From NCBI GenBank assembly GCA_965202985.1, contig CBDBCF010000002.1, positions 800,001 to 864,000 of the forward strand: a stretch of 64,000 nt of DNA, read 5' to 3'. This document shows, one piece after another, positions 23,442 through 28,761 of this stretch (its first letter is position 1; every line of letters starts with the position of its first letter). Made by a program: the position numbers and the translations under genes. The stretch comes from Longimicrobiales bacterium. GTDB taxonomy: Bacteria; Gemmatimonadota; Gemmatimonadetes; Longimicrobiales; Gaopeijiaceae. The notes under the pieces were generated by a model. It saw only the letters and a list, made by a program, of their open reading frames with translations. It searched no databases and was not told the origin of the DNA.

Positions 23442-24581
23442 CTATCCGGGACCAGCGCCGTCCTGGGAACCCTCTTCCAGTTGAACGCGGTAGGTCACGT
23501 ACCGCACCGAGCCCGTCGGCGTCACCACCAAGTTGCCGGTTAGGCCAGGCTCGACCCAGCCGTCGTAGTGCCCGTCAAAGCGTTCGCTGGCCAGCACGCG
23601 TCGCCGTCGCCAGTCGATCACTTCGATCCTGGTGTCCCGGAACAGGTCCCAGTCGCGGGTTGCGCCCGCCTCCGCCCAGCGTTCATCGGCGGTGAAGGCC
23701 ATCACCCAGAGCAACGAATCGTCGGATGCGATACTAACCACTGCGGGATCCGGCTTGTCCTCCCAGCCGTGGCCCTCCATCTGGTCGGGCGGAAACCACT
23801 CCACGTCGCGCCGCAATACGCGCACAAGCGTGTTCGACTCCCACAGCTCGACTTGGTAGGAACCCCACACAGGGGCCATCCATACGGAGCGGCCCGGACC
23901 ACGGGCGATCGTAAGCCGGCGCAACCGGGTACCCAGTTCGTACTCCCCCGTCAAAGACCCGAACGACTCTCGGATCGCGCCGCTCTCGAGGTCCACCACG
24001 TGGACGGGATACCCCGCTTGTGCGGGCGTCGGAATGTCGGCCACATGAAGCACCAGCGACCCCTCCAACGGCACCGTCTGGATACCCAGCGGCCACCAGT
24101 TCTCCGTTCGAACATCCCGCAACAGCTCGCCAGTCCAGTCGAAGGTCATGATCGCCCCCCGGCCTCGGTCCAGGACGGCAAACACGCCGTCTTCGGTCAC
24201 CACAATCGAGCCGATGTCCCCGAACTCCCCGGGACCCGAGCCGAAACGCCCGATCCGACTGAGTAGGCTCCCGTCCGCGCCGAACACCCAGACGTGAGGA
24301 GTCGACCAGCCGGCGATCACGTAGGCCCGGCCGGAGGCGTCCAGCCGGCCGATTGCCATCTCGGCCTCGATCATCCCTTCGCCCGAGTCTGCGCCGTACT
24401 CGCGCTCGGGAACCAGTGTCAGGCCGCACGGCTCCCGGCACGGCTCCAGCACGACGGCATCGACCGACTCCTGGGCCGTGGCCGTGGAGGAGCCGACCCC
24501 GAGCGCGACGATCGCCGCGACCGGCAGCAGAAGCCGGCTACTCGACGACCGCCGCGCCCGGGAGTGCGGGAAGCTGCTCAT
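23442..24581 (-). CDS. Secreted 6-bladed beta-propeller (NHL/TolB-like) protein, tandem copy 4
   Basis: Signal peptide ending ATA|QES; VWVFGADGSLLSRIGRFGSGPGEF; VLDRGRGAIMTFDWTGELLR. Confidence 0.85.
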   Translation of the reverse strand: MSSFPHSRARRSSSSRLLLPVAAIVALGVGSSTATAQESVDAVVLEPCREPCGLTLVPEREYGADSGEGMIEAEMAIGRLDASGRAYVIAGWSTPHVWVFGADGSLLSRIGRFGSGPGEFGDIGSIVVTEDGVFAVLDRGRGAIMTFDWTGELLRDVRTENWWPLGIQTVPLEGSLVLHVADIPTPAQAGYPVHVVDLESGAIRESFGSLTGEYELGTRLRRLTIARGPGRSVWMAPVWGSYQVELWESNTLVRVLRRDVEWFPPDQMEGHGWEDKPDPAVVSIASDDSLLWVMAFTADERWAEAGATRDWDLFRDTRIEVIDWRRRRVLASERFDGHYDGWVEPGLTGNLVVTPTGSVRYVTYRVQLEEGSQDGAGPG

Positions 24582-25729
24582 TGAGGGACGGGCTCCGATG
24601 GGCGCGGGGAAGAAGGGCTTTCCTCCAGTTGAACGCGGTAGGTCACGTACCGCACCGAGCCCGTCGGCGATATCGCCAACGTGCCGATCAGGCCCGGCTC
24701 AACCCAGCTGTCGTAGTCCTCGTCGAAGCGCTCGCTGGCCAACACGCGTCCCCGTCGCCAGTCGATCACCTCGATCCTGCTGTCGCGGAACAGGTCCGAG
24801 TCGCGGGTTGCGCCCGCCTCCGCCCAGCGTTCGTCGGCTGTGGAGGCGAACACCCAGAGCAAGGAATCGTCGGACGCAATATGAGCCACCACGGGACCCG
24901 GCTTCTCCTCCCAGCCGTGGCCCCCCATCTGGTCGGGCGGAAACCACTCCACGTCGCGCCGCAGCACGCGCACAAGCGTGTTCGACTCCCACAGCTCGAT
25001 TCGGTAGGAACCGCGTTCAGGGGCCATCCATACGGAGCGGCCCGGACCGCGCGCAATCGTCCGGGCACCCAAACGGGTCCCCAGTTCGTATTCCCCCGTC
25101 CGAGACCCGAACGACTCTCGGATCGTGCCGTTCTCGAGGTCCACCACGTGGATGGGATACCCCACCTGGGCGGGTGTCTGGATCTCGGCCCCATGAAGCA
25201 CCAACGATCCCTCCAACGGCAACGTCTCGATACCCAGCGGTAGCCAGTTCTCCGTTCGAACCTCCCGCAACAGCTCGCCGGTCCAGTCGAAGGTCATGAT
25301 CGCACCCCGGCCCCGGTCCAGCACGGAAAACACGCCGTCTTCGGTTACTACGATCGAGCCGATGTCCCGGAACTCCCCGGGACCCGAGCCGAAACGCCCG
25401 ACCCGACTCAGCAAGCCCCCGTCCGTGCCGAACACCCAGACGTGGGGAGTCGCCGAGCCGGCCATCACGTAGGCCCGACCGGAGGCGTCCAGCCGGCCGA
25501 TTGCCATCTCCGCCTCGATCATCCCTTCGCCCGAGTCCGCGCCGTACTCGCGCTCGGGAACCAGCGTCAAGCCGCAGGGCCGTCGGCACGGCTCCAGCAC
25601 GACGGCGTCGGCCGACTCCTGGGCCGTGGCCATGGAGGTGCCAATCCCGAGCGCGACGGCCACCCCGACCGGCAGCAGTAGCCGGCTGTTCGACGACCGC
25701 CGCGCCCGGGAGTGCGGGAAGTCGCTCAC
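24578..25729 (-). CDS. Secreted 6-bladed beta-propeller protein, tandem copy 3
   Basis: Same motifs, 383 aa, 4-nt overlaps with both neighbours. Confidence 0.85.
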   Translation of the reverse strand: MSDFPHSRARRSSNSRLLLPVGVAVALGIGTSMATAQESADAVVLEPCRRPCGLTLVPEREYGADSGEGMIEAEMAIGRLDASGRAYVMAGSATPHVWVFGTDGGLLSRVGRFGSGPGEFRDIGSIVVTEDGVFSVLDRGRGAIMTFDWTGELLREVRTENWLPLGIETLPLEGSLVLHGAEIQTPAQVGYPIHVVDLENGTIRESFGSRTGEYELGTRLGARTIARGPGRSVWMAPERGSYRIELWESNTLVRVLRRDVEWFPPDQMGGHGWEEKPGPVVAHIASDDSLLWVFASTADERWAEAGATRDSDLFRDSRIEVIDWRRGRVLASERFDEDYDSWVEPGLIGTLAISPTGSVRYVTYRVQLEESPSSPRPSEPVPQ

Positions 25730-26877
25730 TGGGGAACGCGCTCCGGCGAGCCCGAGGGAGGGGTACCCTCCTCCAGTTGAACGCGGTAGGTCACGTACCG
25801 CACCGAACCCGTCGGCGATATCGCCAACCTGCCGATCAGGCCCGGCTCAACCCAGCCGTCGTAGTGCTCGTCGAAGCGTTCGCTGGCCAGCACGCGTCCC
25901 CGTCGCCAGTCGATCACTTCGATCCTGGTGTCCCGGAACAGGTCCCAGTCGCGCGTTGCGCCCGCCTCCGCCCAGCGTTCGTCGGCAGTGGTGGCGAACA
26001 CCCAGAGCAAGGAATCGTCGGATGCGATCTCCCTCACCCTAGGGACCGGCCTATCCTCCCAGCCGTGGCCTCCCATCTGGTCGGGCGGAAACCACGCCAC
26101 GTCGCGCCGCAAAATGCGCACAGGCGTGTTCGACTCCCAAAGCTCGATTCGGTAGGAACCCCATACAGGAGCCATCCATACGGAGCGGTCGGGACCGCGC
26201 GCGATCGTCCGGGGGCCCAAACGGGTCCCCAATTCGTATTCGCCCGTCAAAGACCCGAACGACTCTTGGATCTTGCCACTCTCGAGGTCAACCACGTGGA
26301 TTGGGTACCCCACTTGTGCGGGTGTCTGGATGTCGGCCCCATGAAGCACCAGCGACCCCTCCAGCGGCACCGTCTCGATCCCCAGCGGCAACCAGTTCTC
26401 CGTTCGGACCTCCCGCAACAGCTCGCCAGTCCAGTCGAAGGTCATGATCGTCCCCCGGCCTCGGTCCAGGACGGAAAACACGCCGTCTTCGGTCACCACG
26501 ATCGAGCCGATGTCCCCGAACTCCCCGGGACCCGAGCCCAAACGCCCGATCCGACTGAGTAGGCTCCCGTCCGCGCCGAACACCCAGACGTGGGGAGTCG
26601 ACCAGCCGGCGATCACGTAGGCCCGGCCGGAGGCGTCCAGCCGGCCGATTGCCATCTCCGCCTCGATCATCCCTTCGCCCGAGTCCGCGCCGTACTCGCG
26701 CTCGGGAACCAGCGTCAGGCCACAAGACTCCCGACACGGCTCCAGCACGACGGCATCGACCGACTCCTGGGCCGTGGCCATGGAGGCACCAACCCCGAGC
26801 GCGGCGGCCACAGCAACCGGCAACAGTAGCCGGCTGTTCGATAACCGCCGCGCCCGGGAGTACGCGAAGCTGCTCAC
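25726..26877 (-). CDS. Secreted 6-bladed beta-propeller protein, tandem copy 2
   Basis: Same motifs, 383 aa, GTGA overlaps. Confidence 0.85.
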   Translation of the reverse strand: MSSFAYSRARRLSNSRLLLPVAVAAALGVGASMATAQESVDAVVLEPCRESCGLTLVPEREYGADSGEGMIEAEMAIGRLDASGRAYVIAGWSTPHVWVFGADGSLLSRIGRLGSGPGEFGDIGSIVVTEDGVFSVLDRGRGTIMTFDWTGELLREVRTENWLPLGIETVPLEGSLVLHGADIQTPAQVGYPIHVVDLESGKIQESFGSLTGEYELGTRLGPRTIARGPDRSVWMAPVWGSYRIELWESNTPVRILRRDVAWFPPDQMGGHGWEDRPVPRVREIASDDSLLWVFATTADERWAEAGATRDWDLFRDTRIEVIDWRRGRVLASERFDEHYDGWVEPGLIGRLAISPTGSVRYVTYRVQLEEGTPPSGSPERVPQ

Positions 26878-28025: not shown

Positions 28026-28648
28026 TGGAGGACCAGCTCCAGGGCGGGGACCGAGGCTACGCCGTAGCTGGCCACGACTTGCTCCCGGCACCCGATCAGC
28101 TGAAGCATCCGACGGTCGTGATTGATCCGCACACGATGCGGAAGCTCGGCCAAGAGCGCCGCGAGTTCTTCGGCACCAACCGCCTTGAGCGACCCCGACA
28201 ACAGATCGGGAGGCGTCGCGCCCGAAGTTGCTCGCCCACTGCATCGAGGATGCATCGAGCAGTATCCTGCTCCACAGCTCTCGGGATGGAACCCGATGAC
28301 CATATCGCTGAACGGCGGCGGCGGCCCGCCCACCAGCATGTGGCTCTTGGGTGCGCATGCCACGCAAGCGAAGCAGTACGCCTGCAGCAGGCGCTCCATT
28401 TCCGCCGCGAGTCCTACGACCGTGGTCGGCACCGGCGGGCCGGGCAAGTCGCCACCCGGCTTGGAGCCAGCTACGGGCGACGAGGTCGCCCCCGCACCCT
28501 CTACCGAGGCGTATGCGTCCTGGACCTGACCGCTAGGGACCTCTTTGGAGTCCAGGAGATATATCTCCGGCACGGGCCGGACGGCGACGCCGACGGCCAG
28601 AACCGCGACGAAGCCCAGAGGGACCAACGACAACTTGGACAGCCACAT
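28022..28648 (-). CDS. Secreted Cys/His-rich hypothetical protein (208 aa) heading the propeller operon
   Basis: GGAGG RBS then ATG 28648; hydrophobic N-terminus; P/S/G linker; core YCFACVACAPKSH...FHPESCGAGYCSMHPRC. Confidence 0.8.
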   Translation of the reverse strand: MWLSKLSLVPLGFVAVLAVGVAVRPVPEIYLLDSKEVPSGQVQDAYASVEGAGATSSPVAGSKPGGDLPGPPVPTTVVGLAAEMERLLQAYCFACVACAPKSHMLVGGPPPPFSDMVIGFHPESCGAGYCSMHPRCSGRATSGATPPDLLSGSLKAVGAEELAALLAELPHRVRINHDRRMLQLIGCREQVVASYGVASVPALELVLQ

Positions 28649-28746
28649 GGCTACCTCCACCTTGTGCGCGCCACGAGAGCGCGTCCGTACCTGCGGCCGA
28701 CTTCGATAGTCGAAGCCTGTCGCCGGAACTGCGCTCCCAAGTCACG

Positions 28747-28761
28747 GCAATTCTCGTGCCA
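28747..28761 (-). promoter_or_regulatory. Sigma-54 (-24/-12) promoter
   Basis: Minus strand TGGCACGAGAATTGC matches the TGGCACG-N4-TTGC consensus with GG-N10-GC spacing; intergenic, ~100 nt before ATG 28648. Confidence 0.85.

Follow-up and report, generated by a model that had tools for sequence, protein, structure and literature searches.

A 64,000-nt stretch of the genome of a Longimicrobiales bacterium from sponge samples (Gemmatimonadota; GenBank assembly GCA_965202985.1, contig CBDBCF010000002.1, positions 800,001 to 864,000), referred to here as the window and numbered from its first nucleotide, carries a 5.3-kb cassette that consists of a gene for a small Cys/His-rich protein followed by four genes for beta-propeller proteins. 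An earlier sequence-only reading had described this arrangement, and a check of the open reading frames (ORFs) gave the same order and coordinates, copy 4 being 379 aa. The features of the cassette, all on the reverse strand, are listed below.

28747-28761, reverse strand: sigma-54-type -24/-12 consensus TGGCAC-N5-TTGC, 98 nt upstream of the ATG of the small gene; putative promoter, local to the cassette
28022-28648, reverse strand: small protein (208 aa) from an uncurated Cys/His3 family, with a hydrophobic N-terminus, a low-complexity linker, a Cys/His core and a C-terminal domain predicted to dock
28241-28375, reverse strand: strain-variable Cys/His core of the small protein, residues 92-136 (C92, C95, C98, H103, H121, C125, C130, H133, C136)
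28025-28213, reverse strand: C-terminal domain of the small protein, residues 146-208, with N176, R179 and Q183 (predicted docking) and the lone conserved C187
26874-28025, reverse strand: propeller copy 1, 383 aa, DUF5128/NHL-like with six blades, an N-terminal CxxxC and the T185-P186-G190-H194 motif
27375-27476, reverse strand: loop 184-190 and strand 211-217 of copy 1, predicted to dock; all four copies agree at 11 of 14 contact residues
25726-26877, reverse strand: propeller copy 2, 383 aa
24578-25729, reverse strand: propeller copy 3, 383 aa, with the substitutions W92S and W311S at two positions predicted to make contact
23442-24581, reverse strand: propeller copy 4, 379 aa, original 3' end retained

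The propeller starts at 28025, 26877, 25729 and 24581 follow one another in steps of 1148 bp, and 4-nt GTGA or ATGA overlaps chain the ORFs. Both observations had been made before and were borne out, yet they represent a single fact, one tandem-duplicated unit. Over their 24 terminal nt, copies 1, 2 and 3 agree with the end of the small gene at 15, 17 and 15 positions, and copy 4 agrees at 5. This likeness suggests that the tail of the small gene was the starting point of the duplicated unit, which took in the ribosome site and the overlap; such an origin would account jointly for the spacing and the overlaps. On the sequence evidence, both come from tandem duplication of one unit.

All four copies passed the cut-off of the Pfam family PF17170 (DUF5128, a domain of unknown function) with 36.7-41.8 bits against 22.9, and copy 1 was modelled as a six-bladed propeller with a predicted local distance difference test (pLDDT) score of 91.3. 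The best fold matches of this model were NHL domains, among them Brat (Z 22.3, root-mean-square deviation (rmsd) 3.3, 261 aligned), together with the structure 3s9j. The copies share 83-86% protein identity and 86-89% DNA identity, with a synonymous divergence (dS) of 0.21-0.26 and a ratio of non-synonymous to synonymous divergence (dN/dS) of 0.25-0.32. Sponge and marine metagenomes from other studies contain contigs that correspond to different copies, at 0-8 differences from them, and no contig spans the array. As independent contigs match different copies near-exactly, the array is biological. An expansion produced by the assembly, which the sequence-only reading had named as fatal to its proposal, was rejected on the basis of the divergence and of these contigs. 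On a quick tree, the four copies group in a single clade whose sister is an orphan propeller (a propeller gene with no small gene nearby) of a congener. Partition patterns among the copies are mixed, and cross-copy joints occur in other metagenome runs. The genome encodes about 93 related propellers, most of them without a small partner, and they are among its most expanded exported families; export of the propellers is predicted from their signal-like N-termini.

Profile searches assigned the small protein to a family of 385 clusters at 50% identity, matched in 46 of 301 genomes of the phylum Gemmatimonadota, a count that is a lower bound, with 12 candidates scored per genome. In 144 aligned members, C92, C95 and C136 are conserved in 100%, C130, R179, Q183 and C187 in 99%, H103 and H133 in 98%, H121 in 95%, C125 in 88% and C98 in 85%. 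The number of core Cys residues is even (4, 6 or 8) in all 144 and C98 and C125 are lost jointly, which points to disulfides, while the number from the core to the C-terminal end is odd in all 144, which suggests one unpaired Cys, most simply C187. The core would then hold three disulfides and a three-His metal site. The model of the small protein (pLDDT 82.6, predicted template modelling score 0.61) comprises a beta-rich core, a flexible linker and a helix-plus-three-strand C-terminal domain, and the hydrophobic N-termini of 131 of 143 family members suggest export.

No credible Pfam match was obtained for the 144 aligned members, with two single weak hits, and the small protein drew blanks in NCBIfam, PADLOC, a PDB sequence search, Foldseek, the ESM Atlas and plasmids. 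A fold search by VIA with the whole-protein model as query reached Z 4.6 at best, so that a small known core fold may remain. A weak search for longer or fused forms found none, and metagenome scans for relatives returned nothing or chance matches (0 of 119 loci). By the Pfam, NCBIfam, PDB and fold searches, the small protein falls in an uncurated family. Searches of an open-access library found no description of the pair, and in the main text of PMC10469786 the terms propeller, NHL, toxin and RiPP (ribosomally synthesised and post-translationally modified peptide) all go without mention. Elsewhere in this genome, Cys-rich small exported ORFs of other families adjoin propeller genes (C2:247289-248017, C2:257129-257956 and C2:658723-659298).

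Linkage was assessed at 50 non-redundant loci, obtained by removing 11 own or duplicate loci from the 61 fetched. A propeller gene was present on the same strand within about 1.5 kb of the small gene in 48 of the 50, against a background of 3.5% for random windows in this genome; a few of the linked propellers are truncated or weakly matching. Hence, homologues of the small gene keep company with propeller genes, as had been anticipated. The 1:4 ratio, in contrast, did not prove to be a family feature, since other loci have ratios of 1:1 or 2:1 or three tandem pairs. By this tabulation, the conserved unit is the uncurated two-gene pair, and the four-copy expansion is local. The array forms include three tandem small-plus-propeller pairs (L070 6700-11330, genome G061) and a propeller followed by two small genes (L071 5823-8440, genome G138). 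This genome holds a second intact pair at C1:1238301 and a small-gene remnant before an intact propeller at C1:830024.

Forty neighbouring propellers have in common an N-terminal Cys pair (C52 in 36) and a T-P-x-x-x-G-x-P-L-H motif (G190 in 40, H194 in 39), and on the top side R223, W302 and D316 are conserved in 28, 35 and 32, respectively. Of the 211 called neighbours in 20 regions, 83 were scanned, those closest to the pair on either side, and no third gene recurred among them; integrases, transposases and toxin-antitoxin genes are frequent there. Thioredoxin, considered as a third member, was near only 2 of the 20 regions (L069 and L081) and was rejected.

Direct binding of the small protein to the propeller is predicted from a co-fold that contained copy 1, the small protein and a single Zn. 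The co-fold score was 0.72, compared with 0.00 for the best control, contacts common to the runs amounted to at least 29%, and the partner pLDDT was at least 59. The co-fold mark was reached by 116 of 157 solved pairs and by 2 of 215 mismatched pairs, in a calibration that is approximate (own alignments, ligand). The lowest-error contacts join propeller residues 184-190 and 211-217 to N176, R179, Q183 and strand 191-196 of the small protein, and these are the residues conserved on each partner. The Cys/His core including H133 was modelled over the top face of the propeller, where it is placed less surely. C187 and the N-terminal Cys pair of the propeller lie outside the confident interface, which bears neither way on an inter-subunit disulfide.

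Both partners vary. The core of the small protein is variable at 24 of 58 positions, compared with a fraction of about 0.2 elsewhere, in five close homologues. Among the four propeller copies, 45 of the 72 variable sites fall on the top face (166 of 334 positions; p 0.01), as assigned from the strand order of the copy 1 model and not from coordinates. The ratio of non-synonymous to synonymous polymorphism (pN/pS) among the copies is 0.44 for the top face, 0.23 for the rest and 0.14 for the docking residues.

The linkage runs one way. A set of 38 cognate-type propeller loci was drawn from the best 30 of 73 matches in one search and all 8 of another; a small gene is nearby in 10 and absent in 28, of which 24 keep the docking motif. 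The numbers of small genes and cognate-type propellers, respectively, are 2 (plus a remnant) and 10 in this genome (G000), a remnant and 5 in G001, 0 and 1 in G002, 1 and 8 in G003, 12 and 27 in G061, 5 and 28 in G071, 3 and 5 in G212, 0 and 2 in G062, 0 and 2 in G063, 0 and 3 in G070, and 0 and 0 in G008. Propellers exceed small genes in every genome with any (10 of 11), and in 5 of the 11, which are 92-99% complete, propellers are present and no intact small gene was found. On a quick version of the tree, orphans are interspersed with paired propellers through 16 changes, at least 11 of them forced by strong branches. The dN/dS of orphans is 0.24-0.50 in eight comparisons, including 0.28 for a tandem orphan pair in G001; to judge from these ratios, orphan propellers are under purifying selection.

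In run X8, the small gene is interrupted at 28565-28569 by an insertion whose inverted ends are 13 bp long, and propeller copies persist. The end motif of the insertion also flanks transposase remnants in this genome. In the same run, the small gene joins a copy-3-like start, with a skip of 2296 nt that equals 2 x 1148. The insertion and the joint indicate that the array is rearranged or mosaic between strains.

The consensus -24/-12 site noted earlier was confirmed, having exact spacing and lying upstream of the first gene. It is the single match in the window (0.10 expected; at least one in 9 of 100 shuffles), and genome-wide there are 15 sites, whereas the frequencies of the two words predict 3.3 and other spacings give 1-10. 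Of the 15, most precede genes with signal-like N-termini, and rpoN and sigma-54 activators are encoded in the genome, one activator at window positions 860-2062. However, no such site was seen before the small gene or the pair in 30 small loci, one loose site preceded a propeller among the 20 regions, and the site was absent at the same chromosomal position in five relatives. Not found before the pair at other loci, the promoter is a plausible local control of this cassette and not a family trait; sigma-54 control as part of a conserved system was rejected at the family level. The activator at 860-2062 is a candidate activator of the cassette promoter. The 15 exact sites represent a candidate sigma-54 regulon of exported proteins, which includes an ORF of 83 aa with six Cys, accompanied by a propeller, at C1:2570192. 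At other loci, a fragment of a sigma-54 activator continues in frame into a broken small gene (L066 5695-6861, G061), and a full sigma-54 activator lies just downstream of a pair (L081 5694-6986, G112).

The cassette forms one edge of the following larger feature.

7960-28790, no strand: variable island between pntB and an NtrY-like kinase gene, the cassette being its kinase-side edge; not at the same position in five relatives

In none of the five relatives checked does the cassette come after the NtrY-like kinase, and in four of them pntB and other core genes lie within about 2 kb after the kinase. The kinase was therefore rejected as part of a conserved system at the family level and represents a landing site. 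The activator at 860-2062 (reverse strand), which has a receiver-like start, and the kinase at 28792-32823 (reverse strand) form one ancestral cluster in relatives, split here by the island. The island of about 21 kb contains a leucine-rich-repeat protein, a KAP nucleoside triphosphatase (NTPase) and insertion sequence (IS) remnants. The first (13839-17420, reverse strand) is an exported protein, about 1194 aa long, whose C-terminal part bears an HExxH-type segment, a motif read from the sequence, and is of a type typical of sponge-symbiont eukaryote-like proteins. The low-GC KAP-family NTPase (20006-21397, reverse strand) lies between IS remnants and matches the PADLOC candidate defence model PDC-S20 (E 1e-91). 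Genes for four small paralogues, which have a membrane helix at the N-terminus and coiled-coil repeats, lie on the forward strand at 8054-9280 and 22878-23420, a tandem group of three at one island end and a single gene at the opposite end, and their common tail sequence recurs after the kinase region in G003.

The interpretation preferred here, tentatively and at somewhat less than an even chance, is that the small protein is an exported metal-binding antagonist and that the propellers form an immunity-like repertoire. The earlier proposal of a toxin and a receptor or immunity repertoire stood in part: the linked pair, the predicted binding, the one-way linkage and the orphans support it, whereas the sigma-54 site and the 1:4 ratio are not features of the family. 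The C-terminal domain would dock through N176, R179, Q183 and strand 191-196 on the T-P-x-x-x-G loop and strand 211-217 of the propeller, setting the Cys/His core, which would be braced by three nested disulfides and would bind Zn or Cu at a three-His site, over the propeller top face. Specificity may come from a conserved anchor and a variable patch on each partner. The propeller may shield the metal site during passage of the small protein through the periplasm of the producer. Propellers would probably capture the small protein of their own cell and variant forms from related strains, with spare copies recognising and neutralising the variants of rivals, and extra copies and orphans covering the versions of other strains. 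The conserved anchor, two-sided variable patches, recombining tandem array, kept orphans and losable small gene together match toxin-immunity arrays such as those of esaG and tipC.

Several observations weigh against antagonism. No toxin domain or fold was found in the small protein by Pfam, NCBIfam, PDB sequence or fold searches, and no conserved acidic or basic catalytic residue was found in the core of the 144 sequences. A delivery machine linked to the pair does not recur in the 20 regions, and in this 92% complete genome VipB was not found and one secretin was. The predicted docking residues are 99% conserved in a family of about 25-30% identity, which an arms race should erode and a cooperative complex would keep. 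No propeller region has a pN/pS above 1, the most variable sites are not significantly enriched on the top face (8 of 11, p 0.11), and the confident contact list holds only 1 of these 11. Gene order in the 48 linked loci is free (propeller first in 21, small gene first in 20, propellers on both sides in 7). Some small genes adjoin truncated propellers, twice in G071, which has other propellers and in which one small-gene copy has lost a core Cys, and the full-length small gene at L031 lacks a propeller within 1.5 kb, in a genome with others. The orphans could alternatively reflect recent loss or an independent function of the propeller, and kin genomes are not independent.

Cooperation between the partners would accommodate many of these points. 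A two-subunit metalloprotein, possible although rather unlikely, would have a small subunit with the three-His metal site, perhaps with a free C187, and a propeller that supplies the pocket, the four copies being interchangeable specificity subunits for different substrates or ligands, on the pattern of amine dehydrogenases with their propeller and small disulfide-rich chain. The lack of a toxin fold or catalytic acid/base, the absence of positive selection and the small genes beside broken propellers all favour it. So do the docking residues, near-invariant on both sides (R179 and Q183; G190 and H194), the predicted position of the core with H133 over the top face, the conserved top-side R223, W302 and D316, and the placement of most hypervariable propeller sites outside the confident contacts, as for a substrate pocket. 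Translational coupling and either gene order fit as well. However, intact propellers under purifying selection occur in genomes without an intact small gene, the small gene is disrupted in strain X8, the fast change of the core between strains would be unusual for a metabolic enzyme, and no maturation, electron-transfer or transport gene recurs in the 20 regions. The same one-way linkage would suit a propeller that binds on its own, as a surface adhesin or receptor whose top face varies, and a small protein that is an optional cap, escort or signal ligand, useless alone. The abundance of related propellers lacking this partner, the NHL binding domains such as Brat among the nearest folds, and orphan clades inherited vertically within the genus are in line with this idea. 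It is nonetheless improbable, since it leaves the strictly conserved His3/Cys core unexplained, 24 of the 28 orphans retain the docking motif, and no signal-transduction or transport neighbour is conserved in the 20 regions. Very improbable is a RiPP-like precursor with a variable core and a conserved follower, modified or processed by the propellers. The conserved C-terminal recognition domain beside a variable core, and the resemblance of the propeller fold to the peptide-amidating lyase PAL (Z 17.8, rmsd 3.9, 269 aligned), speak for it. However, the core forms a structured domain in which the His are invariant, a single His is conserved in the propeller, and no protease or exporter recurs in the 20 regions; the absence of a modifying enzyme recurring beside the pair weakened the precursor alternative that the sequence-only reading had offered.

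The two-gene module at this locus is real and uncurated, and its expansion to four propeller copies is local. For DUF5128-type propellers, the locus provides a specific partner, a docking hypothesis at the level of residues, a putative metal site and four pocket variants that occur naturally. An antagonistic pair would represent a new toxin fold and immunity class in a barely cultured phylum and a mechanism of strain competition in sponge microbiomes, and a cooperative one a new modular metalloenzyme design. A bolder and doubtful extension is that the pairs are phylum-wide, undescribed modular exported metalloproteins, in which a disulfide-braced three-His subunit plugs via a universal docking domain onto a propeller repertoire, so that strains might share, intercept or retune metal-active subunits, the invariant Cys might dimerise or activate them, and the four-gene array might give combinatorial complexes.

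The propellers resemble DUF5128/NHL proteins, which are above the PF17170 cut-off, exported and often tandem, including Bacteroides BVU_1028 (3s9j; Z 20.8, rmsd 3.8, 310 aligned) and BF0058 (4raa; Z 18.9, rmsd 3.9, 293 aligned). The solved relatives bear titles of DUF or putative exported protein only, and the propellers described here differ from them by the N-terminal Cys pair, the T-P-x-x-x-G-x-P-L-H motif and the dedicated His3 partner. Methylamine and aromatic amine dehydrogenases likewise combine a propeller chain with a small disulfide-rich chain that meets it at the propeller face. Those with tryptophan tryptophylquinone (TTQ) have two conserved Trp in the small chain and MauG-type maturation genes, whereas the propeller here has six blades, His3 takes the place of the TTQ Trp and mau maturation genes are lacking: no conserved Trp column was found in the 144 small-family sequences, and the 20 regions gave one partial CCP_MauG hit. 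PAL carries a set of metal-binding His inside its propeller, whereas only H194 is conserved among the 40 cognate propellers. In Bacteroidota, NVEALA peptides (PF14055) are encoded beside propeller genes, and a small Cys-containing exported protein beside DUF5128 propellers recalls them. The parallel drawn earlier did not extend to the family itself, as the protein here is larger, two-domain and His3-bearing, and PF14055 matched 0 of 144 members at E 0.01. A modifying enzyme or transporter of the kind expected in a RiPP cluster does not recur among the 83 of 211 neighbours.

The zinc metallochaperone AztD, as described in PMC6689063, is a periplasmic eight-bladed propeller with its own conserved Zn sites and an ATP-binding cassette (ABC) system. 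The likeness lies in a periplasmic propeller that contacts a metal-binding protein, a contact that is predicted here; in contrast to AztD, the propeller here has six blades and one conserved His, the small partner carries the putative metal-site His, and a recurring transporter is lacking in the 20 regions. In esaD/esaG of S. aureus and telC/tipC of streptococci, passages of PMC9484751 describe an upstream gene followed by tandem non-identical paralogues that recombine and vary in number. The cassette shares with such polymorphic toxin-immunity arrays the upstream gene and tandem diverged paralogues, recombination, variable copy number, and conserved and variable blocks, and orphan copies without a partner, as in these arrays, occur here too. 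It differs from them in having no known toxin domain, no link to a type VI or type VII secretion system, signal-like N-termini on both partners and docking conserved family-wide, the antagonism being putative. The module is therefore immunity-array-like in its genetics and is no member of the tested toxin, RiPP, amine-dehydrogenase, PAL, AztD or NVEALA families.

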